A stretch of DNA of 64,000 nucleotides, from the NCBI RefSeq assembly GCF_055900595.2, contig NZ_CM148325.1. The stretch is one strand, 5' to 3'. Below are positions 15,010 to 63,792 of this stretch, piece after piece. Both the position numbers and the translations under genes were made by a program. A model generated the notes under the pieces. That model made no database searches and was not told the origin of the DNA. It was given only the letters and a program-made list of their open reading frames with translations. Numbering within the stretch: position 1 is the stretch's first letter; each line of letters opens with the position of its first letter.

Positions 15010-15086
<77 letters not shown>

Positions 15087-15119
15087 TCACCGTACTGCTT
15101 TACTTCATCAAATTTTGAT

Positions 15120-15196
<77 letters not shown>

Positions 15197-15229
15197 TCAC
15201 CGTACTGCTTTACTTCATCAAATTTTAAT

Positions 15230-15306
<77 letters not shown>

Positions 15307-19629: not shown

Positions 19630-19835
19630 AAAAAAAAGCACCGCAATTAGGCGGTGCTACATTAATCACTATGGACAGACAGGGTAAATGTACAGGAAGT
19701 GAAAAAAGGTAGCTTTGCTACCATGGTCTGAATCGCAGACCAATTGCAAACACAACAACACAACATCACAACCGTAAGCCAAAAGTTCACCAGAACACGC
19801 ATTCCGATAAAACTTTTCGTTCCGGCTCAGGAAGT
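19630..19835 (-). ncRNA. gcvB: GcvB small regulatory RNA, divergent from gcvA
   Basis: Reverse complement matches the remembered GcvB sequence (ACTTCCTGAGCCGGAACGAAAAGTTTTATCGGAATGCGTGTTCTGG...GCACCGCCTAATTGCGGTGCTTTTTTT) including the G/U-rich region and terminator. Confidence 0.85.
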
Positions 19836-34858: not shown

Positions 34859-36223
34859 TTACGTGCAGATTTCGTAGCAAGGGATGTACGCTGAGCCTGG
34901 CAACTTCATACGATGCTGGGCAACAAAACCCTGTAGCAGGTCGTCCATACGACGCATAATCTCTTTATCGCCGTTGATTTTGTAAGGACCAAACTCTTCA
35001 ATGGCGCGAATACCGACTTCTTTTACGTTACCCGCCACAATACCGGAGAAGGCACGACGCAGATCAGCGGCCAAAACTTCTACTGGCTGATCCGGGTACA
35101 GTTTCAGATTAGCCATGTTCTCGTGAGACGGCTCAAACGGCATTTGCAGATCGGGCGCAATACGCATTGACCAGTTAAAGCTGTAGGCATCGCCCGTATC
35201 GCGACGGTTTTCTTTCACCAGCGGCATCGATTTTTTCATCTGACGAGCGACTTCAGCGGCGTCATCAATGATGATGCGATAATGGCGTCGCGCGTTTTCT
35301 CCCAGCGTATGCACGACAAACTCGTCCAGTACGCGGAAATAGTCGGCGCTCTCTTTTGGCCCGGTGAGGATCAATGGTAAAACCTGATCTTTGTTGGCCG
35401 GATTCATTAAAATTCCCAGCAAATACAGCAACTCTTCTGCCGTACCCACACCGCCAGGGAAGATAATGATGCCGTGAGCGATACGAACAAAAGCTTCCAG
35501 ACGTTTTTCGATATCCGGCATGATGATCAATTCGTTGACCAGCGGGTTAGGCGGTTCAGCGGCGATAATCGACGGCTCTGTCATACCAATAAAACGACTG
35601 TCTTTGTAACGCTGCTGTGCGTGTCCGACCGCAGCACCTTTCATCGGCGCTTCCATCGCTCCCGGACCACAGCCGGTGCAGATATTCAGCTCACGCAGGC
35701 CCAGCTGATTCCCGACGCGACGGGCATACAAATACTCGTTTTCGTTAATTGAGTGCCCGCCCCAGCAGACCACCATATTTGGCGCTTCACCGACATGCAG
35801 CGCACGAGCGTTACGCAAGATGGAAAAGACCAGGTTAGTGATGTGGACGGAGTTGTCGAGATTCAGGTTGGGAAAACGAACGGTGTTATGGATTTGCCCG
35901 TAAACGAAGAGAATGTCACGCAGAACCGCGAACAAGTTGGCCTGCAAAGCGCGGATAATACGCCCATCGACAAAAGCATCTTCCGGTGGATTAATCAGTT
36001 CCAGCTTTACGCCGCGTTCACGGCGCAGGACGTTAATATCGAAATTTTCAAAACGAGACAGCAATTCTTTGCTGTTATCGGTCAAACTACCGGAGTTCAG
36101 TACGGCAAGTGAACAGTTGCGAAACAGTTGATAGAGGTCGCTGCTGGCGGTGCGTTTAAGCATATCCACTTCCAGCTGCGACAACATATCCATGGAGCCA
36201 AGCGGGCTAATATGTGTAATCAA
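34859..36223 (-). CDS. ppnN: Pyrimidine/purine nucleotide 5'-monophosphate nucleosidase (LOG family)
   Basis: 454 aa; conserved position between sdaC and queF. Confidence 0.9.
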
Positions 36224-38006: not shown

Positions 38007-38370
38007 GTCGACAGGGAGTCAGACAACGAAGTGAACATCAGGATGATGACACTTCTGCAGGACACACCAGGAGGGTGTTTCAGGGAAAGGCTTCTGGATG
38101 AAGCGAAGAGGATGACGCAGGACGCGTTAAAGGACACCTCCAGGATGGAGAATGAGAACCGGTCAGGATGATTCGGTGGGTCAGGAAGGCCAGGGACACT
38201 TCAGGATGAAGTATCACATCGGGGTGGTGTGAGCAGGAAGCAATAGTTCAGGATGAACGATTGGCCGCAAGGCCAGAGGAAAAGTTGTCAAGGATGAGCA
38301 GGGAGCAACAAAAGTAGCTGGAATGCTGCGAAACGAACCGGGAGCACTGTGAATACAGTGCTCCCTTTTT
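38007..38370 (+). ncRNA. csrB: CsrB regulatory RNA (CsrA-sequestering)
   Basis: Begins gtcgacagggagtcagacaacgaag; more than 15 CAGGA(U/A)G-type GGA motifs; ends with hairpin ccgggagcactgtgaatacagtgctccc plus T run. Confidence 0.85.
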
Positions 38371-38379
38371 GTGCACAGA

Positions 38380-39090
38380 AAACCCCCAGCTAGGCTGGGG
38401 GTTCCGGAAAGCTTTCAGCTTTGAGCCAGTTATTAAAACCCCTTTTGATTTGTTAAAACACCTTGCGGTCTGGCAACTGCAAGTGTCAAACAAGAAATCA
38501 AAAGGGGGTCCCAATGGGGGACGAAAAGAGCTTAGCGCACACCCGCTGGAACTGTAAATATCACATAGTTTTTGCGCCGAAATACCGAAGACTGGCGTTT
38601 TACGGAGAGAAGCGTAGGGCGATAGGCAGTATTTTGAGAAAGCTGTGTGAGTGGAAAAGCGTACGGATTCTGGAAGCAGAGTGCTGCGCAGATCATATCC
38701 ATATGCTTGTGGAAATCCCACCCAAAATGAGCGTATCCGGCTTTATGGGATATCTGAAAGGGAAAAGCAGTCTGATGCTTTACGAGCAGTTTGGGGATTT
38801 GAAATTCAAATACAGAAACAGGGAGTTCTGGTGCCGAGGGTACTATGTCGATACGGTGGGTAAGAACACGGCGAAGATACAGGACTACATAAAGCACCAG
38901 CTTGAAGAGGATAAAATGGGGGAGCAGTTATCGATTCCATATCCGGGCAGCCCGTTTACGGGCCGTAAGTAACGAAGTTGAATGCAAATGTCAGATCGTA
39001 TGCGCCTGTTAGGGCGCGGCTGGTAACAGAGCCTTACAGGCGCATTTGAAAAACCTCCGGCTATGCCGGAGGATATTTATTTTTATTCCT
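38380..39090 (+). mobile_element. IS200-type insertion sequence (IS200/IS605 family), about 0.7 kb
   Basis: Left-end hairpin acccccagctaggctgggggtt, Y1 transposase gene, right-end hairpins (cctgtaaggctc..., cctccggctatgccggagg); boundaries approximate. Confidence 0.7.
38514..38972 (+). CDS. tnpA: IS200 transposase TnpA (HUH/Y1 family)
   Basis: MGDEKSLAHTRWNCKYHIVFAPKYRR...CCADHIHMLVEIPPK...RNREFWCRGYYVDTVG; 152 aa; start trimmed from ORF track (38463). Confidence 0.85.
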   Translation: MGDEKSLAHTRWNCKYHIVFAPKYRRLAFYGEKRRAIGSILRKLCEWKSVRILEAECCADHIHMLVEIPPKMSVSGFMGYLKGKSSLMLYEQFGDLKFKYRNREFWCRGYYVDTVGKNTAKIQDYIKHQLEEDKMGEQLSIPYPGSPFTGRK

Positions 39091-39129
39091 GCTATCCTTC
39101 GCGGCAGTTTTTCTTATTGAGGTTGCTTT

Positions 39130-43842: not shown

Positions 43843-45183
43843 ATGAGTTCTCAATTTACGACGCCTGTTGTTACTGAAATGCAGGTCATCCCGGTGGCGG
43901 GCCATGACAGTATGCTGATGAATCTGAGTGGTGCACACGCACCGTTCTTCACGCGTAATATTGTGATTATCAAAGATAATTCTGGTCACACTGGCGTAGG
44001 GGAAATTCCCGGCGGCGAGAAAATCCGTAAAACGCTGGAAGATGCAATTCCGCTGGTGGTGGGTAAAACGCTGGGTGAATACAAAAACGTTCTGACGCTG
44101 GTGCGTAATACATTTGCCGATCGTGATGCCGGCGGGCGCGGTTTGCAGACATTTGATTTGCGGACCACTATTCATGTGGTTACCGGGATAGAAGCGGCAA
44201 TGCTGGATCTGCTGGGGCAGCATCTGGGGGTTAACGTGGCATCGCTGCTGGGCGATGGTCAACAGCGTAGCGAAGTCGAAATGCTCGGTTATCTGTTCTT
44301 CGTCGGTAATCGCAAAGCCACACCGCTGCCGTATCAAAGCCAGCCGGATGACTCATGCGACTGGTATCGCCTGCGTCACGAAGAAGCGATGACGCCGGAT
44401 GCGGTGGTGCGCCTGGCGGAAGCGGCATATGAAAAATATGGCTTCAACGATTTCAAACTGAAGGGCGGTGTACTGGCCGGAGAAGAAGAAGCCGAATCTA
44501 TTGTGGCACTGGCGCAACGCTTCCCGCAGGCGCGTATTACCCTCGATCCTAACGGTGCCTGGTCGCTGAACGAAGCGATTAAAATCGGTAAATACCTGAA
44601 AGGTTCGCTGGCTTATGCAGAAGATCCGTGTGGTGCGGAGCAAGGTTTCTCCGGGCGTGAAGTGATGGCAGAGTTCCGTCGCGCGACTGGCCTGCCGACC
44701 GCAACCAATATGATCGCCACCGACTGGCGGCAGATGGGCCATACGCTCTCGTTACAATCCGTTGATATCCCGCTGGCGGATCCGCATTTCTGGACGATGC
44801 AAGGTTCGGTACGTGTGGCGCAAATGTGCCATGAATTTGGCCTGACCTGGGGTTCACACTCTAACAACCACTTCGATATTTCCCTGGCGATGTTTACCCA
44901 TGTAGCCGCTGCTGCACCGGGTAAAATTACTGCTATTGATACGCACTGGATCTGGCAGGAAGGCAATCAGCGTCTGACCAAAGAACCGTTTGAGATCAAA
45001 GGCGGGCTGGTACAGGTGCCGCAAAAACCAGGATTGGGCATAGAAATCGATATGGATCAGGTGATGAAAGCCCACGAGCTGTATCAGAAACACGGGCTTG
45101 GCGCGCGTGACGATGCAATGGGAATGCAGTATCTGATTCCTGGCTGGACGTTCGATAACAAGCGTCCGTGCATGGTGCGTTAA
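43843..45183 (+). CDS. gudD: D-glucarate dehydratase
   Basis: [30 protein letters not shown]; start trimmed from ORF track (43819). Confidence 0.9.
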
Positions 45184-45198
45184 GACAGAAAACCAAAA

Positions 45199-45225
45199 CC
45201 GGCTCTGTCAGGAGCCGGTTTTTAC
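45199..45225. terminator. Bidirectional rho-independent terminator between gudD and barA
   Basis: aaccggctctgtcaggagccggttttt hairpin with flanking A and T runs. Confidence 0.5.
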
Positions 45226-45240
45226 TGGATAACATATTTA

Positions 45241-47997
45241 TTACCCAAGAATTTTGCTGGCTTCGCGCGCTACATTATCCATCTCGTCCAACAGTTCCAG
45301 CAGCTCCGGCTCCAAATCTTCTTCTTTAGTACCGCTGCGTAGCTGTTGTTCGATCAGTTGGCAGAGATTCTTCATACGCGGCACACCGCTATAGCCGCAA
45401 CTGCCATGCAGTTTATGAATCAAATCAACCAGGCCTTCCGGGTTTTCTCCAACCAGCTGTTCCTCAACTTTGTTGCGAACTTCAGGCAGGAAATCGAGTA
45501 ACATTTGCAGCATATCGCGCGCTAAATCGGTTTTTCCTGCTGCCTGGCGTAGTGCCAGTTGCCAGTCGAGGGTCGCATTCGGGTTCACCACAATTTCATT
45601 GACTTCGGGGGTCACGACGCGAGAGGAAATACCGCTGCCAGGCTTGTAGCGCAACAGCAAATTATGCAATCGTTCTTCTTCAATCGGTTTCGCCAGATAA
45701 TCGCTCATCCCTGCGCCAAGCAGCTTCTCTTTTTGCCCGGCCATTGCATGCGCCGTTACCGCGATAACCGGCGTTTGTTGCTGATGTGGGAGCTGGTGGA
45801 TGAGTTCGCAGGCCCGAATTCCGTCCATGTCCGGCATTTGAATATCCATTAAGATCAGATCGAACGGCATCTGTTTCGCCCGTTCAACGGCCTGATGCCC
45901 GCTATCGCAAAGTTCCACATGTTGCACCATATCTTCCAGCAATGCGCCGATAAGTTTCAGGTTAGCGGGGTTGTCATCAACCGCCATGACTGTCATTGCC
46001 AGCTTACTTTCATCGGTTACAGGCAAAAGCGTGTTTTGTTTGTGATGACAAAATTCCGTCAGGGCAGGGAACAGGCGTGTAGGTGTTAATGGTTTCAGCA
46101 GACACGCGCCGATACCATCTTGCTTAAGTTTTTCAGCATTGACTTGTGCATGGCAAGGAAGTGCCAGCATCAGAAAATCGGTCATCGATACCGCTTTCGC
46201 TAATCGCTCATGTTGCATTGTTAGCGGCTCGCGGAAGGTCACCGCAATGCCTAATAACATCATGTCGTAATGCGCGGGAGGCAGCGCGGAGAACGTTGGG
46301 CTATAAACCACTTCCAGCGGCGTTTCACTTAAAATATCCAGCGTGCATTGCGCTGCTGCGGAGTTTGGTTCGACATAGGCCAGGCGCTTGCCGGCGAGGC
46401 ACTGGGTGGATGGCCCTTCGATAATAATGTTCGGATTCAGATCGAGATTAATGTGGAACCAGAAAGTTGAACCGCGATTCGGCTGGCTATGGAACGAAAT
46501 ATCGCCGCCCATTTCATTAACCAGTTTCTGTGTGATCACCAGCCCCAGCCCGGTGCCACCATGACGGCGGGAAATACTGGCATCAGCCTGTCGGAAGGCC
46601 TGGAATAAGCGCGATTGATCGCGTTCCGGAATACCAATGCCGGTATCCCGAATCTGCACTTCAATCTGCACTTTGGTATTACTCAGCGCACGTTTTTCTA
46701 CCAGAATATCAATGTTGCCATTCTCGGTGAATTTAATTGCATTCCCTACCAGGTTAGTGATGATTTGCTGTAATCGCAGTGGGTCGCCAATTACATTATC
46801 GGGCACGTCGCTCTTAATATTGAGCGTCAGTTCCAGCCCTTTATCGTGAGAAGAATGTGCCAGCAGGGTAACGACTTCATCCAGCGTGCTGCGTAGTGGG
46901 AATGGAATACTTTCCAGAATCAGCTTACCTGCTTCCAGTTTCGAGAAGTCGAGAACATCATTAATAATTGCCAGCAAATTATTTGCCGAACGTTCAATCG
47001 TATTCAGGTGATCGCGCTGCGTTGGTGTTAATTCTGTTTTCAGCGTCAGGCGGGTAAAGCCAATAACGCCATTGAGCGGAGTTCGCAGCTCGTGGGACAT
47101 ATTTGCCAGAAACTCAGACTTAATCCGCGCCGCTTCCTGGGCACGTTTTTTCGCCAGATCCAACTCAACGTTCTGAATTTCCATCTGCTCCAGCGTTTCA
47201 CGTAGATCGGACGTCGCCTGGTCGATATTGTGCTGCATCTCTTCGTGATAAGCTGCCAGCGACATTGCCATCGAGTTGATGCCATTTTTCAGCATATCCA
47301 GCTCGCCGAGCATAAATCCTTCCACTCGGCTGTCGAGTTGTCCGCGACGGATACGGTCGACGGTATTCACCATGTTGCGAATTGGACCGGTTACATCACG
47401 CATGAGTCGCCAGCCAAAAATAAGCGCAATACCGATACAAAACAGCATCATCACGCTGGAAATAAAGATCTCTTTATATTGCTGCAAGCGAACCGATTTT
47501 AGATCCAGTTCAAGCGCGATATATCCCAGCATATTTTGACTATTTTTGGCATCACTACTGGGCGATTCGTCGGGGGAATAACTCTCGGAAATAATTGGTG
47601 TGCGTAAGATCATAATATCACCGTCACGTGTGACAGTGAGCTGGCGAGGAAACGGCACGTTGCTGCCGAGCTGCATTGATGAGGGATCAAGATGAAAATT
47701 GGAGGTGACAAAGAGTCGGTTATTTTCATCATAAACCGAAATCGCGCGAACAATATCGGAATGGCGACGATGCAGTACGCTTATTAACTGACCGATAGAT
47801 TCGCGATTTTGCAGGCTCATGCCATATTCAGTAGAAACTGCAAGCGGCTCAATAATGCTGGCTCCGGCATCTTCCAGTTGACGCTGCAAGTCGTTATAGC
47901 GATGCACAACGAAAAAGATACTCAGCAATAAACCAATAAGGACGGTCGGTGCCAGGATCAGAATCATCATGCGTGCGCGCAGGCTGTAGTTGGTCAT
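45241..47997 (-). CDS. barA: Hybrid sensor histidine kinase BarA
   Basis: 918 aa; HAMP, HisKA (SHELRTPLN), REC and HPt domains. Confidence 0.95.
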
Positions 47998-57368: not shown

Positions 57369-58517
57369 TCACCAACGGCCGGATGAACCGCCACCGCCAG
57401 AAGAACCGCCGCCACCGCGGAAAGAGTTTTTCGACGAAGAGCGAGAATGAGCATTACGATTCCCCATTTTCCTGTTGATTTTATGTCCTGATCCCAGTTT
57501 AAGATTGCCAGTAAATTTGGCCACAATGATCAGCAGAACGATGCCAGCAATGGTTATTGGGCCGATAAAATGATCAATTAGCCCAATAATTGTTGAGATG
57601 AACGCAATATCTTTATTACTGGCAAATACCAGGCACCATCCCACAACAATTATCAGCAGCACGACAAACAATGAATTTCGTCCTGATTCACGAACCTGCG
57701 GAGCCTTCTTTTGTTTTTTCACTTTAGCGTTTTTATTTTGGGGGGCCAGCATCATAGGAAATGCGCGGCATATATTAAAAACTACCGCGAGACGCTGCCA
57801 GTAGATTGCTGCGAAAAATAAACTAAAACAAACGACCGATACCCGTCGAATGATGACATCGTTCTGAAAGCAGAAAAACCAGACCATAGGGGTAATCATC
57901 GATATCATCCATATGCCAGGCCCTGGATGGGTGGTAAATCGCCAGAGGACAACGATGGCAACGATCATCAGCAGTGTCCAGGCAAGACATGGCAGAGAGC
58001 GTTGCGGATTAGCAAACAGATGATTGGCTAAAGCATCCAAAGGGCTAAGATTCGCTTTTATATAGGTAAACTGTGCAATGCCTTCAATTCCCTGCGTTAA
58101 CCCGGAGAAGAGATTATTTTTTTTGAATTCCGGTTGCATATGGTAATGAACAATTTGCGCAGCTTGTTCCGGTGGCAGCATCTCTTCCAGTCCATGCCCA
58201 ATCTTCATTGACGCCAGCCCTTCCGGCCAAACGACGAGAATTAAGATACCTTCGCCGTACCGCTTCTCTCCAACAGGTTTCCAGTGATATAACCCGTAGC
58301 TTTGCGAGGCTGCAAGTTTAATGTCTTTACCCCCAGTGGTCGGCGTTACCAACACGGCAACCTGAAAGTGGTTTTGCTGCTCGAGAGTCTGTAATTGTTG
58401 AGTTAAAGCAGTTTGTTCTTCTGTCGTTAATGTCCCGGTTAAGTCAGTTACTGAAGGCAATTGTTCAGCGAATGCCTGGAAACCACATAGCATCAGAAGT
58501 AAGAGAAAAATACGCAT
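57369..58517 (-). CDS. TPM-domain membrane protein paralog (382 aa) with Lys-rich segment and Gly/Ser tail
   Basis: MRIFLLLLMLCGFQAFA signal peptide; divergent TPM domain; KNAKVKKQKK stretch; tail GGGGSSGGGGSSGRW; 5 bp from downstream ygcG start. Confidence 0.7.
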   Translation of the reverse strand: MRIFLLLLMLCGFQAFAEQLPSVTDLTGTLTTEEQTALTQQLQTLEQQNHFQVAVLVTPTTGGKDIKLAASQSYGLYHWKPVGEKRYGEGILILVVWPEGLASMKIGHGLEEMLPPEQAAQIVHYHMQPEFKKNNLFSGLTQGIEGIAQFTYIKANLSPLDALANHLFANPQRSLPCLAWTLLMIVAIVVLWRFTTHPGPGIWMISMITPMVWFFCFQNDVIIRRVSVVCFSLFFAAIYWQRLAVVFNICRAFPMMLAPQNKNAKVKKQKKAPQVRESGRNSLFVVLLIIVVGWCLVFASNKDIAFISTIIGLIDHFIGPITIAGIVLLIIVAKFTGNLKLGSGHKINRKMGNRNAHSRSSSKNSFRGGGGSSGGGGSSGRW

Positions 58518-58531
58518 TTCAATTCCTTTTG

Positions 58532-59464
58532 TTACCAGCGCCCGGAGGCGCCACCGCCGCCAGATGAACCGCCGCCGCCGCTGAAATTATCATTGTCAAA
58601 AGAGGATGAAGAGGAAGATGACGACGATGATGAAGAACGCCTGGAGGCCGAGTTACTTCTTTCGTAATGTGACGGTCGGTTGGCACTGCGCATCGAATCC
58701 CGAACCTTTTTGCCGAAGGGGGTAAAAGCGATGGCGACAGCCAGGAACGGTGTGGCGAAGCAGAGTAATGTTGCGAGTACTCCCCAGCTTCCGCTGAAAC
58801 CTGCTATAGGTAAAACAAAGGCCAGTACAATAGCTGTGAAGCAAATTAGTCCCAGCGTTTTGACATATCCTCTGGCGGAAATAAAGGTCAGTACTATTGC
58901 CCAGACTAACAAAGCCCACCAACCGTTAAAGGGCAAAGGGTGATCGGTCGGTGTTATCGTTGCTAAATTATTCCCCGTCAGACGATTATCAATATCGCTT
59001 ATTCCCTTTTGCAAGCCGCCAGCCAGGTCGCCATTTTTAAATGCCGGAATAATACTGTTGCGAATAATTTTCCCGGACTGCGCATCCGTAATAACGCCTT
59101 CCAGTCCGTAACCGACTTCAATACGCACGGTATGATCCTGCCAGGCGACTAACAGTAGAACGCCATCATCGCGGTCTTTATCACCCGGTTTCCAGCTATC
59201 GAATACCCGCGTAGCGTACTGCTCGATGGTTTCATCGCCCGTTGTTTCAACCACTAACACGACCAGTTGTGCGTGGCTTTTTTGCGTCAGCTCTTTAATC
59301 TGATTGGTCAACGTATTTACTTCATCGTTCGTCAATTTGCCGGTTAAGTCATTCACATACCTGGGTGATTCAGGTACTGGAATTTGTATGGCAAACACAG
59401 ATGAACAAAAGAAAGCCATAAGGAAGATAAAATTTCGCACAGGACTTCCTCGCTTAATGAGCAT
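58532..59464 (-). CDS. TPM-domain membrane protein paralog (310 aa) with poly-Ser and Gly/Ser tail
   Basis: TPM domain closely similar to the ygcG-like gene (…TIEQYATRVFDSWK…VRIEVGYGLEGV…); SSSSSSSSSSSS run; tail GGGGSSGGGGASGRW; overlaps lemA stop by 11 nt. Confidence 0.75.
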   Translation of the reverse strand: MLIKRGSPVRNFIFLMAFFCSSVFAIQIPVPESPRYVNDLTGKLTNDEVNTLTNQIKELTQKSHAQLVVLVVETTGDETIEQYATRVFDSWKPGDKDRDDGVLLLVAWQDHTVRIEVGYGLEGVITDAQSGKIIRNSIIPAFKNGDLAGGLQKGISDIDNRLTGNNLATITPTDHPLPFNGWWALLVWAIVLTFISARGYVKTLGLICFTAIVLAFVLPIAGFSGSWGVLATLLCFATPFLAVAIAFTPFGKKVRDSMRSANRPSHYERSNSASRRSSSSSSSSSSSSFDNDNFSGGGGSSGGGGASGRW

Positions 59465-60056
59465 TAGTATTCTGGCTAAAATCTATTGTCGGGGCTTTAC
59501 TCACAGCGGCGACATCATCCGGCAAATAATTTTTCTTTGGTGTGTAATCCATAACCTTTGCGGTTAACACTGCGGGGAATTTGCGGATAGTGACATTATA
59601 TTGTTCAATAGCTTTAATATATCTTCCTCGCGCAACGGCAATTCGATTTTCACTTCCTTCGAGCTGTACCATCAAATTTTGATAGAGTTCCTGGGCCTTT
59701 AGCTCAGGGTAACGTTCACTAATTATCGTTAACTGACCGAGAGTGCGAGACACCTGCGCCTGAGCTTGTTGCCAGGTTTGTAATTTTTGTTCATCTCCCG
59801 GAGTTTGCTGAAGAGCACTACTGGCGCGATTAGCCTGACTACGTGCCAATGTTACGGCTTCCAGTACCTCTTGTTCATGGCTGGAATAACCTTTAATACT
59901 GGCGACAAGATTAGGAATAAGATCGGCGCGACGTTGATATTGATTTAATACCTCAGACCAGGAAGCGTTAACCTGCTCATCATAGGTTTGAATATCGTTA
60001 TATCCACAGCCTGATAAATTGAAAATAAATATAATTACGATGAATGTTCTGAGCAT
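59454..60056 (-). CDS. lemA: LemA-family lipoprotein
   Basis: MLRTFIVIIFIFNLSGC lipobox; 200 aa; first gene of the lemA/TPM operon. Confidence 0.8.
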   Translation of the reverse strand: MLRTFIVIIFIFNLSGCGYNDIQTYDEQVNASWSEVLNQYQRRADLIPNLVASIKGYSSHEQEVLEAVTLARSQANRASSALQQTPGDEQKLQTWQQAQAQVSRTLGQLTIISERYPELKAQELYQNLMVQLEGSENRIAVARGRYIKAIEQYNVTIRKFPAVLTAKVMDYTPKKNYLPDDVAAVSKAPTIDFSQNTNAH

Positions 60057-60137
60057 GGTTAAATCCCTTTTAATTAATTCCTTAAAACATAATACGCCAC
60101 TTCATTTTATTCTTTATGATCTAATCCACTTTTTGCC

Positions 60138-61466
60138 CTGAGAGATCCCCTCATAATTTCCCCAAAACGTAACCATGTGTGAATAGATTTTGAGTAAGCA
60201 GGGTTGCAGCCACGAGTGAGTCTTCCCTTGTTATTGTGTAGCCAGAATGCCGCAAAACTTCCATGCCTAAGCGAACTGTTGAGAGTACGTTTCGATTTCT
60301 GACTGTGTTAGCCTGGAAGTGCTTGTCCCAACCTTGTTTCTGAGCATGAACGCCCGCAAGCCAACATGTTAGTTGAAGCATCAGGGCGATTAGCAGCATG
60401 ATATCAAAACGCTCTGAGCTGCTCGTTCGGCTATGGCGTAGGCCTAGTCCGTAGGCAGGACTTTTCAAGTCTCGGAAGGTTTCTTCAATCTGCATTCGCT
60501 TCGAATAGATATTAACAAGTTGTTTGGGTGTTCGAATTTCAACAGGTAAGTTAGTTGCTAGAATCCATGGCTCCTTTGCCGACGCTGAGTAGATTTTAGG
60601 TGACGGGTGGTGACAATGAGTCCGTGTCGAGCGCTGATTTTTTCGGCCTTTAGAGCGAGATTTATACAATAGAATTTGGCATGAGATTGGATTGCTTTTA
60701 GTCAGCCTCTTATAGCCTAAAGTCTTTGAGTGACTAGATGACATATCATGTAAGTTGCTGATAGGTTTCCAGTTTTCCGCTCCTAGGTCTGCATATTGTA
60801 CTTTTCCTCTTACTCGACTTAACCAGTACCAACCCAGCTTCTCAACGGATTTATACCATGGCACTTTAAAGCCAGCATCACTGACAATGAGCGGTGTGGT
60901 GTTACTCGGTAGAATGCTCGCAAGGTCGGCTAGAAATTGGTCATGAGCTTTCTTTGAACATTGCTCTGAAAGCGGGAACGCTTTCTCATAAAGAGTAACA
61001 GAACGACCGTGTAGTGCGACTGAAGCTCGCAATACCATAAGCCGTTTTTGCTCACGGATATCAGACCAGTCAACAAGTACAATGGGCATCGTATTGCCCG
61101 AACAGATAAAGCTAGCATGCCAACGGTATACAGCGAGTCGCTCTTTGTGGAGGTGACGATTACCTAACAATCGGTCGATTCGTTTGATGTTATGTTTTGT
61201 TCTCGCTTTGGTTGGCAGGTTACGGCCAAGTTCGGTAAGAGTGAGAGTTTTACAGTCAAGTAAGGCGTGGCAAGCCAACGTTAAGCTGTTGAGTCGTTTT
61301 AAGTGTAATTCGGGGCAGAATTGGTAAAGAGAGTCGTGTAAAATATCGAGTTCGCACATTTTGTTGTCTGATTATTGATTTTTGGCGAAACCATTTGATC
61401 ATATGACAAGATGTGTATCCACCTTAACTTAATGATTTTTACCAAAATCATTAGGGGATTCATCAG
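60138..61466 (-). mobile_element. IS10 (IS4 family), complete 1329 bp copy flanked by 9 bp target site duplication CTTTTTGCC
   Basis: Inside end ctgagagatcccctcataatttccccaaaacg at 60138; outside end (reverse complement ctgatgaatcccctaatgattttggtaaaaatcatt) at 61466; identical 9-mers at 60129-60137 and 61467-61475. Confidence 0.9.
60151..61359 (-). CDS. IS10 transposase
   Basis: 402 aa starting MCELDILHDSLYQFCPELHLKRLNSLTLACHALLDCKTLTLTELGRNLPTKARTKH, full length with no frameshift. Confidence 0.9.
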   Translation of the reverse strand: MCELDILHDSLYQFCPELHLKRLNSLTLACHALLDCKTLTLTELGRNLPTKARTKHNIKRIDRLLGNRHLHKERLAVYRWHASFICSGNTMPIVLVDWSDIREQKRLMVLRASVALHGRSVTLYEKAFPLSEQCSKKAHDQFLADLASILPSNTTPLIVSDAGFKVPWYKSVEKLGWYWLSRVRGKVQYADLGAENWKPISNLHDMSSSHSKTLGYKRLTKSNPISCQILLYKSRSKGRKNQRSTRTHCHHPSPKIYSASAKEPWILATNLPVEIRTPKQLVNIYSKRMQIEETFRDLKSPAYGLGLRHSRTSSSERFDIMLLIALMLQLTCWLAGVHAQKQGWDKHFQANTVRNRNVLSTVRLGMEVLRHSGYTITREDSLVAATLLTQNLFTHGYVLGKL

Positions 61467-61566
61467 CTTTTTGCCTTAAACCTGCCTGTAACAGAATGTT
61501 AATAAGACATGATTGTTGTGGCAGGATCTGCAATAATTAACAATTATCCACTTCACAGAGAATGCT

Positions 61567-62238
61567 ATGCAGTACCCGATTAACGAGATGTTCCAGACCC
61601 TGCAAGGTGAGGGTTACTTTACCGGCGTCCCCGCCATTTTTATTCGTTTACAGGGATGCCCGGTCGGCTGTGCCTGGTGCGACACCAAACACACCTGGGA
61701 AAAGCTTGAGGATCGGGAAGTCTCCCTTTTCAGCATTCTGGCGAAGACCAAAGAGAGTGATAAGTGGGGGGCGGCGAGCAGTGAAGATTTGCTGGCTGTC
61801 ATTGGTCGTCAGGGATACACCGCGCGGCATGTGGTGATTACGGGTGGTGAGCCTTGCATTCATGATTTGCTGCCACTGACTGACCTGCTCGAAAAGAACG
61901 GTTTTAGCTGCCAGATCGAAACCAGCGGTACTCATGAAGTACGCTGCACGCCGAATACCTGGGTTACCGTATCGCCAAAGCTGAACATGCGCGGCGGCTA
62001 TGAAGTGTTGTCACAGGCACTGGAACGAGCCAACGAAATCAAGCATCCAGTGGGACGCGTACGTGATATTGAAGCACTGGATGAACTACTGGCAACGCTG
62101 ACCGATGATAAACCACGAGTCATTGCACTGCAGCCAATTAGCCAGAAGGACGATGCCACACGTTTGTGCATTGAAACCTGTATTGCGCGTAACTGGCGTT
62201 TATCGATGCAAACACATAAATATTTAAATATTGCCTGA
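61567..62238 (+). CDS. queE: 7-carboxy-7-deazaguanine synthase (radical SAM)
   Basis: MQYPINEMFQTLQGEGYFTGVPAIFIRLQGCPVGCAWCDTKHTW; 223 aa. Confidence 0.9.
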   Translation: MQYPINEMFQTLQGEGYFTGVPAIFIRLQGCPVGCAWCDTKHTWEKLEDREVSLFSILAKTKESDKWGAASSEDLLAVIGRQGYTARHVVITGGEPCIHDLLPLTDLLEKNGFSCQIETSGTHEVRCTPNTWVTVSPKLNMRGGYEVLSQALERANEIKHPVGRVRDIEALDELLATLTDDKPRVIALQPISQKDDATRLCIETCIARNWRLSMQTHKYLNIA

Positions 62239-62399
62239 TTAAACATTTATAAGCGTTATAAATGGGTGGAACCTGTAAAGACTTCCACTCATTTATATTC
62301 TTTGTCGCCTCTGAAAAAACTCCATTTTGCCCATCCTGGACTAATCATTATCATTCTCTACAAATTCTCTGGCGTTAATTTTTCGTTGGAGTGAAAATT

Positions 62400-62576: not shown

Positions 62577-63154
62577 GAGTTCCCCACGTCAGCGGGGATA
62601 AACCTTGCTCGATGCGGGCGTTAACTTTTTTATAGGCGAGTTCCCCGCGCCAGCGGGGATAAACCGCGTAATTTTGTACGCTCAACACGTAACTAAATGA
62701 GTTCCCCGCGCCAGCGGGGATAAACCGATCACCAGTGCGGATTGTTCAAATAGTGCCTGGAGTTCCCCGCGCCAGCGGGGATAAACCGAGAGCTATATCG
62801 CAGCGTTTAACTGGATGACAGAGTTCCCCGCGCCAGCGGGGATAAACCGGTGTTTTTTGCCATCTGAACTGTGGCACGCCGGAGTTCCCCGCGCCAGCGG
62901 GGATAAACCGTCTATAATGTCTCATCCGGGGTTAATTCAATCGAGTTCCCCGCGCCAGCGGGGATAAACCGATCAGCCCCACATCCGGTTTTGCCAGCAA
63001 CGTGAGTTCCCCGCGCCAGCGGGGATAAACCGTAAGATGATCTCACGGAATTGAACGAACTACGGAGTTCCCCGCGCTAGCGGGGATAAACCGGACACAG
63101 AGCGCCGCTATAGCGCCTATGCCAAGAGTTCCCCGCACCAGCGGGAATAAACCA
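62577..63154 (+). CRISPR. Type I-E CRISPR array, 10 repeats and 9 spacers of 32 nt (61 bp period)
   Basis: Repeat GAGTTCCCCGCGCCAGCGGGGATAAACCG at 62638, 62699, 62760, 62821, 62882, 62943, 63004; degenerate copies at 62577, 63065 and 63126. Confidence 0.9.
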
Positions 63155-63608: not shown

Positions 63609-63746
63609 ATATTCCTTGTAAAAACAGGGATAAACCGAACTAGTTAAAGTTTTTATTATGTTCCCTGCATCAGCGGGGATAAACCGGACTTGTTATCATT
63701 TTTTAAGTTGTCGAACTTATGTTCCCCGCGCCAGCGGGGATAACCA
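63609..63746 (+). CRISPR. Second, degenerate mini-array (3 repeat-like units) preceded by its own AT-rich leader
   Basis: ...cagggataaaccg / atgttccctgcatcagcggggataaaccg / 32 nt spacer / atgttccccgcgccagcggggataacc; AT-rich 63160-63600 upstream. Confidence 0.6.
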
Positions 63747-63792
63747 TTCAGGTATGTTCAGGCCGGGCAGTTTCCCGCCCGGCCTTCCTCAC

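Follow-up and report, generated by a model that had tools for sequence, protein, structure and literature searches.

A single intact IS10, apparently a recent arrival, in the lemA–queE spacer with its outside end facing queE

The spacer between lemA and queE in the window analysed here (one stretch of DNA of 64,000 nucleotides, in whose coordinates all positions are given) holds a single, structurally intact IS10. Very probably this element entered the 172-bp spacer recently, by cut-and-paste DDE transposition and only in the present strain, from where IS-derived transcription into its surroundings is possible. Both the element and its mechanism are already known.

Read directly from the sequence, IS10 occupies positions 60138–61466 (1329 bp, transposase on the minus strand), with the inside end, CTGAGAGATCCCC..., beginning at 60138 and the outside end, ...GGGGATTCATCAG, closing at 61466. 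The terminal inverted repeats are imperfect, CTGATGAATCCCCTAATGATTTT at the outside end and CTGAGAGATCCCCTCATAATTTC at the inside end, and match the ends of both IS10 copies of Tn10 in R100. The 23-nt terminal sequences of the inside end (60138–60160, plus strand) and of the outside end (61444–61466, minus strand, IS10-Right type) each gave a unique match with 0 mismatches in the 64-kb window, where shuffled sequences are expected to give 0. Both Dam (GATC) sites are present, at nt 67–70 in the pIN region (window 61397) and at nt 1320–1323 in the inside end (window 60144). Identical copies of a 9-bp target duplication, CTTTTTGCC, flank the element at 60129–60137 and 61467–61475, as found by reading the sequence and, in agreement, by a repeat search; relatives have the 9-mer just once at their empty site. 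Excision in silico of IS10 together with one 9-mer left a 172-bp lemA–queE spacer that is base for base the empty site of NZ_CP098223, so that the duplication is real and not a coincidence; because it is perfect, the copy has moved once. Re-inspection thus bore out the initial annotation, which had described an IS10 of exactly 1329 bp with canonical ends, identical flanking 9-mers and an origin by simple transposition. The length, ends, duplication, DDE transposase, RNA-OUT and Dam sites all fit IS10 of the IS4 family, whose DDE cut-and-paste reaction would have generated the duplication CTTTTTGCC. This target agrees with the IS10 consensus, NGCTNAGCN, at 3/6 specified bases and in one half-site only; IS10 does use non-consensus targets, though less often (PMC2744996; PMC4574204), so that this partial match counts neither way for the element's identity.

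The distribution of the insertion was assessed among 5,426 complete E. coli genomes, a carrier being defined as a genome in which one place covers at least 80% of a query made of the IS plus its flanks. By this measure 0/5,426 genomes carry IS10 between lemA and queE. Eight of the complete genomes are ~100% identical to the window over positions 36000–60128, i.e., the 24 kb to the left of the insertion, and the site is empty in all eight; these near-isogenic genomes include NZ_CM128600.1 and NZ_CP098223.1. In 7/8 of them the IS10-containing query found a single place, which indicates that these seven have no chromosomal IS10. The exact junction of IS10 with the queE side had no match in GTDB species-representative genomes or in JGI metagenome contigs, and there is in these collections no independent record of the insertion. 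Given its absence from 5,426 genomes, the eight near-identical relatives among them, the insertion appears to be recent and strain-specific, in line with the recent origin that had first been proposed for it. IS10 as such is not rare in the species, since 1,967/5,426 complete genomes, about a third, contain it.

To type the isoform we used the 15 positions at which IS10-Right and IS10-Left of R100 differ. The copy in the window is IS10-Right-like at 4/15 (nt 24, 25, 27 and 47) and IS10-Left-like at 11/15, with a clean crossover pattern between nt 47 and 83, and is identical with neither arm. In comparison with IS10-Left of R100 (NC_002134.1, 36132–37460), there are 0 differences over nt 83–1329, a stretch that takes in the inside end, the complete transposase gene and two variants (nt 83 and nt 107) where RNA-IN and RNA-OUT overlap; the 4 differences all fall within the outermost 47 bp, where the window has the bases of IS10-Right. 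In comparison with IS10-Right (R100, 43950–45278), the reference active IS10, the length, the 23-bp ends, the outer 47 bp and the pOUT region are the same, and the 9-bp duplication, the DDE triad and both Dam sites are shared, whereas 11 nucleotide differences lead to 4 amino-acid changes (V266I, L381S, A389T and A398V) and include G-to-C at RNA-IN position +3, in the RNA-OUT loop, and G-to-A at position –1 of the start codon. This copy thus reads as a hybrid, with the body and transposase of IS10-Left and the outermost 47 bp of IS10-Right, and not as a canonical IS10-Right. The NCBI annotation pipeline PGAP labels the IS10-Right group as 'ISVsa5 family'. IS10-Left is reportedly, from the work of Foster et al. 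in 1981, classically much less active than IS10-Right. Transposition of IS10-Left copies has been observed in NEB5alpha (PMC11481808).

A hybrid of this kind implies that the two arms of Tn10 recombined, or underwent gene conversion, at some time in the past, and this is what could suggest that the copy is an arm or remnant of Tn10 or of another composite element, or that a recombination event between IS10 copies brought it here. However, the window contains one IS10 end of each type and no further ones in its 64 kb, the perfect duplication directly flanks the lone copy, and removing the element in silico gives back the exact empty site. Unlike IS10-Left in Tn10, the copy is solitary. Moreover, the same hybrid exists elsewhere and had therefore formed before the present insertion: E. 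coli 55989, which is absent from the near-identical matches to the left flank (window 36000–60128), carries at another chromosomal location an IS10 (NC_011748.1, 230607–231935) that is 100% identical over all 1329 bp. We consider an origin as a composite transposon or Tn10 remnant to be contradicted by the lone ends in these 64 kb and the exact restoration of the empty site, and arrival by recombination to have practically no chance of being correct.

The hybrid sequence also bears on whether the element belongs to the isolate at all, the alternative being that IS10 jumped into cloned DNA while this was propagated in a laboratory E. coli host, or that the assembly is at fault. IS10 of cloning strains jumps readily into plasmids (PMC4574204; PMC11481808), the exact outer-end isoform occurs in the laboratory strain BM28 lysU, and the junction was unmatched in the other public genomes and metagenome contigs searched. 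Against such an artefact, the same isoform is found in wild isolates (55989 as well as swine and chicken strains), IS10 is common in complete E. coli genomes at the frequency given above, and the window bears no sign of clone-based assembly. Exact full-length copies of the hybrid were found in 55989 and NZ_OZ546963, and its exact outer 130 bp in 11 records, multi-copy genomes among them. An artefact is therefore very improbable, and a genuine insertion in the isolate remains our reading.

The catalytic residues, Dam sites and RNA-OUT are all intact in this copy. The transposase (60151–61359, minus strand) is an uninterrupted open reading frame of 402 aa, as had been noted at the outset, with a Pfam DDE_Tnp_1 match (E = 1.5e-24) and the catalytic triad D97, D161 and E292; the protein is that of IS10-Left, WP_001352368.1, and is 99–100% identical to Tn10 transposases. 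The antisense RNA gene RNA-OUT (61352–61421, plus strand) was detected at full length by Rfam model RF00240, scoring 97.3 bits where the gathering threshold is 41. It overlaps the start of the transposase gene, reads toward the outside end and queE, and has kept its stem-loop (–21.3 kcal/mol, compared with –23.9 for the IS10-Right version). Within the region mapped from the coordinates of PMC5006887 (61357–61386, minus strand), differences were taken from the comparison with the IS10 arms. The pOUT promoter region would lie at 61310–61351 on the plus strand, directly before IS10 nt 115, where RNA-OUT starts; it falls within nt 108–202, an interval without differences from IS10-Right. A generic sigma-70 scan flagged neither pOUT nor pIN and, in the spacer, no promoter for queE or lemA; for promoter positions we therefore relied on published work and on the RNA-OUT start given by Rfam.

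On either side of IS10 the original spacer is accounted for. The gene lemA (59454–60056, minus strand) is an open reading frame for a LemA family protein of 200 aa (Pfam LemA, E = 1.7e-48), annotated as such in relatives, and heads a cluster of lemA and a TPM-domain gene that is transcribed away from IS10. On the other side, queE (61567–62238, plus strand) encodes a 7-carboxy-7-deazaguanine synthase of 223 aa, with a Radical_SAM match and annotation as queE in relatives. Counting the duplicates, 81 bp separate the lemA ATG (60056) from IS10, of which 60057–60128 is the lemA-proximal remnant of the spacer, and 100 bp separate the end of IS10 from the queE ATG (61567); the first estimates of about 80 and about 100 bp were accurate. 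Downstream of queE, a terminator-like hairpin followed by a U-rich stretch is predicted at 62257–62297 on the plus strand (RNA fold –19.3 kcal/mol, z = –3.6); its loop exceeds the length that the consensus terminator scan allows. A type I-E CRISPR array of 10 repeats (62577–63154, plus strand) follows, with its leader located between queE and the first repeat and with transcription running the same way as that of queE. The distance from the end of IS10 to that repeat is 1,111 bp, in agreement with the figure of about 1.1 kb to the CRISPR leader in the initial annotation.

That the lemA–queE spacer acts as a divergent promoter region, as the initial annotation has it, is an assumption. The 91 bp next to queE (61476–61566, plus strand) are intact by sequence comparison and presumably contain the native queE promoter and leader, so that this promoter has probably been retained. 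In this segment we read a putative PhoP-box-like direct repeat, TGTTAC-N5-GGTTTA (61477–61493, minus strand), which matches at 10/12 positions and is the best-scoring one in the region. In K-12, the 300 bp that precede queE are a binding target of PhoP-P (PMC4974570). Our literature search turned up neither a published transcription start for queE nor a PhoP box mapped there, and, on ygcF/yqcG with PhoP and on queE with IS10, nothing beyond PMC4974570.

Since RNA-OUT lies on the plus strand, pOUT points at queE, which is on the same strand, and the orientation first proposed, with the outside end and pOUT facing queE, was thereby substantiated. A scan of the interval from RNA-OUT to queE (61352–61567) found no terminator-like site, so the outward promoter faces its neighbor gene with no terminator detected in between. 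Because lemA and queE both point away from IS10, both can receive IS-derived transcription. On the queE side, the strength of pOUT has been reviewed as ~10% of PlacUV5 (PMC9330008), and its read-out into neighboring genes is documented for otsBA (PMC2744996). RNA-OUT is reported to end for the most part within the element, at nt 47 (PMC5006887), and just a fraction of pOUT transcripts can therefore reach queE. Some pOUT transcripts may nevertheless pass this 3' end and run the 215 nt into queE, where such read-out would add a constitutive, PhoP-independent part to queE expression. It is plausible that read-through of this kind could alter queE expression; with the native promoter probably working, the change in queE level would likely be modest. 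On the lemA side, the outward promoters pIII and OUTIIp, located by PMC11481808 within IS10 nt 1000–1230 (60237–60467, minus strand), are reported there to read out through the inside end of IS10 and would here point at lemA. In this interval the window copy is identical to both IS10-Right and IS10-Left, and transcripts from pIII/OUTIIp, together with transposase read-through, could enter lemA.

Two known cases resemble this arrangement, namely otsBA in rpoS-null E. coli after experimental evolution (Stoebel et al., 2009; PMC2744996) and acrEF in Salmonella (Olliver et al., 2005, as cited in PMC9330008), in which IS10 likewise lies upstream of a gene at a non-optimal target with pOUT directed into that gene. 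In both cases the native promoter was separated from the gene or insufficient, and effects on expression and fitness were measured, whereas here the native promoter-proximal DNA is retained. The insertion could accordingly be real and yet regulatorily neutral, a tolerated hitchhiker in a non-essential spacer with queE and lemA at normal levels from their own promoters. Consistent with this, the queE-adjacent 91 bp are untouched, and the last ~88 bp before queE are identical between the lemA-type and yqcG-type upstream haplotypes; the predominant termination of RNA-OUT at nt 47 points in the same direction, and an IS1 in the same spacer of another strain suggests that the spacer tolerates insertions. 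Conversely, there are several documented cases of neighbor genes activated by pOUT read-out, and in K-12 PhoP-P also binds further upstream of queE and deletion of the upstream gene raises queE expression (PMC4974570), which indicates that upstream context matters for queE. We regard neutrality as a serious contender, falling only a little short of an even prospect.

Other IS10 insertions at queE were compared with the one in the window. In E. coli F5 (NZ_CP195955.1) and EC2202095 (NZ_CP196099.1), IS10 lies 4 bp from the queE ATG with a target duplication, TGCTATGCA, that overlaps the ATG. The gene is the same as in the window and so is the orientation, in which queE is faced by the outside end and pOUT, but in F5 and EC2202095 queE is cut off from its own promoter and ribosome-binding site, and the upstream haplotype is yqcG/ygcG, not lemA. 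A single inherited event in F5 and EC2202095 was rejected, as their flanks are 4–6% divergent, they share no CRISPR spacers, and their IS10 isoforms differ, one being of IS10-Right type and the other of IS10-Left type. In a further strain, 23CRST012, IS10 lies inside queE in the opposite orientation and disrupts the gene.

These insertions raise the question of positive selection, i.e., that the insertion in the window raises or de-regulates QueE, for queuosine synthesis or for the QueE-dependent division block, and is one case of recurrent IS10 rewiring. The independent insertions at the queE ATG with pOUT toward the gene, the orientation shared by 3/3 promoter-proximal insertions (window, F5 and EC2202095) and the control of filamentation by QueE level (PMC4974570) would be in keeping with this. 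However, three identical orientations have a chance probability of 0.125 to 0.25, and uniform orientation is weakened as evidence of selection by the small numbers and by the disrupting, opposite-orientation insertion of 23CRST012. TGCTATGCA, with 5/6 of the specified bases of the IS10 target consensus, may be a favored target, so that recurrence there needs no selection, and purifying selection could explain the orientation bias because the reverse orientation at TGCTATGCA would silence queE. Such events are found in only 3/5,426 genomes, and a gapped-pattern search of metagenome contigs gave no IS10 outside end 0–30 nt upstream of the queE ATG. We therefore think positive selection on the insertion in the window unlikely, and it is equally doubtful that IS10 has landed repeatedly at the 5' end of queE, in three unrelated lineages (at –100 in the window and at –4 in F5 and EC2202095), and been retained by selection for constitutive, PhoQ/PhoP-independent QueE. 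If this were so, the retained insertions would shift either the supply of queuosine or the block of division that depends on QueE and goes with antimicrobial-peptide stress.

For annotation, the locus provides a bona fide and apparently recent IS10 insertion whose exact isoform is known and for which NZ_CM128600.1 and NZ_CP098223.1 can serve as near-isogenic empty-site controls. The sole point of wider interest is whether outward transcription from IS10 uncouples queE from PhoQ/PhoP, given that cell division under antimicrobial-peptide stress depends on the dosage of QueE (PMC4974570). If it does, the insertions in F5 and EC2202095 would be natural pOUT–queE fusions. The uncoupling of queE is thus a small, testable question and not a new kind of system.

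The IS10 copy lies between lemA (59454-60056, – strand) and queE (61567-62238, + strand), both assigned from Pfam and the annotation of relatives, and direct reading of the sequence at 60129-61475 bore out its initial annotation. The inside end, CTGAGAGATCCCCTCATAATTTC, starts at 60138 and the outside end, the reverse complement of CTGATGAATCCCCTAATGATTTT, has its last base at 61466, so that the element is 1329 bp long, as claimed. Within the 64-kb window, each of the two terminal 23-mers has one match, free of mismatches (0 expected from shuffles), and therefore the window holds one IS10 only. The perfect 9-bp target duplication, CTTTTTGCC, is present on either flank (60129-60137 and 61467-61475). 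The 402-aa transposase ORF (60151-61359, – strand) is indeed uninterrupted, matches Pfam DDE_Tnp_1 (E=1.5e-24) and has D97, D161 and E292; the element shows all of the structural features of IS10. Distances also agreed with the earlier estimates: the lemA ATG is 81 bp and the queE ATG 100 bp away, and 1,111 bp separates the element from the first CRISPR repeat (62577).

The description as an intact IS10 was fair, whereas a label of canonical IS10-Right would not hold, because the copy is identical to neither arm of Tn10. The isoform was typed against both Tn10 arms of plasmid R100 at the 15 positions where the arms differ. From nt 83 to nt 1329, numbered from the outside end, the window copy matches IS10-Left throughout, and it has the IS10-Right bases at nt 24, 25, 27 and 47 (4 differences from IS10-Left, 11 from IS10-Right); it is thus a clean hybrid of the two arms, the crossover falling between nt 47 and nt 83. 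It encodes the IS10-Left transposase, WP_001352368.1, which carries four substitutions relative to the IS10-Right protein (V266I, L381S, A389T and A398V). Two IS10-Left-type bases fall within the overlap of RNA-IN and RNA-OUT: nt 83, which is RNA-IN position +3 and lies within the RNA-OUT loop, and nt 107, at position –1 of the start codon. RNA-OUT keeps its hairpin, with one G-C pair changed to G-U (–21.3 versus –23.9 kcal/mol by computed folding). Transposition of chromosomal IS10-Left copies has been reported in NEB5alpha (PMC11481808). The hybrid isoform has been sequenced before: full-length copies with 100% identity are found in E. coli 55989 and NZ_OZ546963, and 11 records match its outer 130 bp exactly, among them a laboratory strain and genomes in which IS10 has as many as 29 places. 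Taking all IS10 types together, 1,967 of 5,426 genomes and over 3,000 plasmids have a copy.

Comparison with a related genome lacking the insertion, which the initial annotation had suggested, was possible with E. coli Z0117EC0005 (NZ_CP098223.1; dog, South Korea, according to the genome record). Removal of IS10 and one 9-mer in silico gave a 172-bp lemA-queE spacer that matches the empty site of this strain base for base, with CTTTTTGCC present there as a single copy. Across 24 kb leftward of the insertion, identity is ~100% in eight genomes (E400634, from human stool in Kenya according to its record, Z0117EC0005, E500002, E200086, 100117, 100248, AST85 and E600003), and the lemA-queE site is empty in all of them. 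In seven of the eight, the IS10-containing query found a single place, and these therefore have no chromosomal IS10. The insertion thus postdates the clade's divergence, itself very shallow. None of the 5,426 complete E. coli genomes had a place covering at least 80% of the query of IS10 plus flanks, and the exact junction was not found in GTDB species representatives or in JGI metagenome contigs. Thus, the proposed recent simple insertion is well supported, and the insertion site alone is new to the searched collections.

Beyond queE lie a type I-E CRISPR array (62577-63154; 10 repeats, the first and last degenerate) and, past the AT-rich stretch that follows it, a 2-repeat mini-array (63658-63747). 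Three internal spacers kept in the window are missing from the near-identical relatives, and one relative has a spacer missing from the window, a pattern that indicates loss of internal spacers rather than acquisition at the leader end. The first spacer contains, right after the degenerate first repeat, a terminator-like hairpin with its T-run (62606-62630). Downstream of lemA, two TPM-domain ORFs (57369-58517 and 58532-59464) have nearly the same Gly/Ser-rich C-terminal tail, GGGGSSGGGG[AS]SGRW; the lemA-proximal one is called a partial pseudogene in the pipeline annotation of relatives, yet its 310-aa ORF is open in the window. Elsewhere, an IS200-type element (38381-39100) directly follows the terminator of csrB (38016-38375, Rfam); it includes STnc490, the IS200 5' RNA (38381-38504, Rfam), and an ORF (38463-38972), and the annotation of relatives has an IS200/IS605 tnpA at this place. 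Rfam gathering-level matches further identified three tRNA genes in tandem with 110-bp spacing (15013-15306, – strand) and a full-length copy of the sRNA GcvB (19630-19835, – strand).

The outside end and pOUT had been said to face queE, and RNA-OUT was accordingly located on the + strand at 61352-61421 (Rfam RF00240, 97.3 bits, full length), that is, IS10 nt 115 to 46, running toward the outside end and queE. The window copy and IS10-Right have the same pOUT sequence, and a sequence scan found no terminator-like sites between RNA-OUT and the queE ATG. Transcripts from pOUT enter adjoining DNA at ~10% of PlacUV5 strength (PMC9330008), and in evolved E. coli they drive otsBA (PMC2744996). Termination of the 69-nt RNA-OUT has, however, been reported at nt 47, within IS10 (PMC5006887), and only a fraction of pOUT transcripts would leave the element. 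The inside end, which the initial annotation had passed over, matters too. PMC11481808 places pIII and OUTIIp at IS10 nt 1000-1230 (60237-60467 here) and reports them reading out via the inside end, and the transposase gene and lemA have the same direction, so that the lemA/TPM-domain cluster may also receive IS10-derived transcription. Outward transcription from pOUT, the proposed regulatory mechanism, is textbook; both element and mechanism are already known.

Most of the native control region of queE is spared: the 91 bp adjoining the gene is intact, and its last ~88 bp does not differ between the two upstream haplotypes, lemA-type and K-12-like yqcG-type. The region's best PhoP-box-like repeat, TGTTAC-N5-GGTTTA (61477-61493, – strand), falls within this stretch, 10 bp from the IS10 end, and we read it as a putative PhoP box rather than a mapped site. 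In K-12, PhoP-P binds to both the first and the second 300 bp upstream of queE, and queE expression rises on deletion of the upstream gene (PMC4974570). Most likely, queE retains its native promoter and would gain a modest constitutive share from pOUT; any regulatory effect of the insertion, we infer, would be modest. Because a terminator-like hairpin lies 3' of queE (62257-62297), transcripts are unlikely to run on to any substantial degree into the CRISPR leader and array, which have the same orientation.

IS elements are present at or near queE in other strains as well (positions below are local to each extracted locus). In F5 (Panama; NZ_CP195955.1; locus L001, 4095-5441) an IS10-Right-type copy, and in EC2202095 (Ireland; NZ_CP196099.1; L002, 4095-5441) an IS10-Left-type copy, share the site and orientation, with the duplication TGCTATGCA overlapping the queE ATG and both the outside end and pOUT toward queE. 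In each, the element comes between queE and its native promoter and ribosome-binding site, so that queE would have to depend on IS-derived signals. Their flanks are 4-6% divergent and no CRISPR spacers are in common, and the two insertions, in unrelated strains, are independent events. In 23CRST012 (Ecuador; NZ_AP045771.1; L007, 2643-3973) an IS10-Right-type copy with the duplication TGCAAGGTG disrupts queE near codon 13 in the opposite orientation, and the pipeline annotation has a shortened queE downstream. FDAARGOS_943 (NZ_CP065615.1; L005, 2208-2975) carries IS1 in the lemA-queE spacer, ~50 bp from the lemA ATG, with the duplication TGCTTCATT; an ISEc60 fragment lies just beyond its CRISPR array, and this neighbourhood attracts IS elements. 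All three promoter-proximal IS10 insertions identified here (window, F5 and EC2202095) direct pOUT toward queE, which is suggestive but weak, with a chance probability of 0.125 to 0.25. The TGCTATGCA site agrees with the IS10 target consensus at 5 of its 6 specified bases, and, because the reverse orientation there would silence queE, purifying selection could account for the bias. Such IS10 events are rare (3/5,426 genomes). Taken together, the original observation is confirmed and its interpretation supported, with these caveats, and the recurrent association of IS10 with queE is the sole thread that merits a small follow-up.
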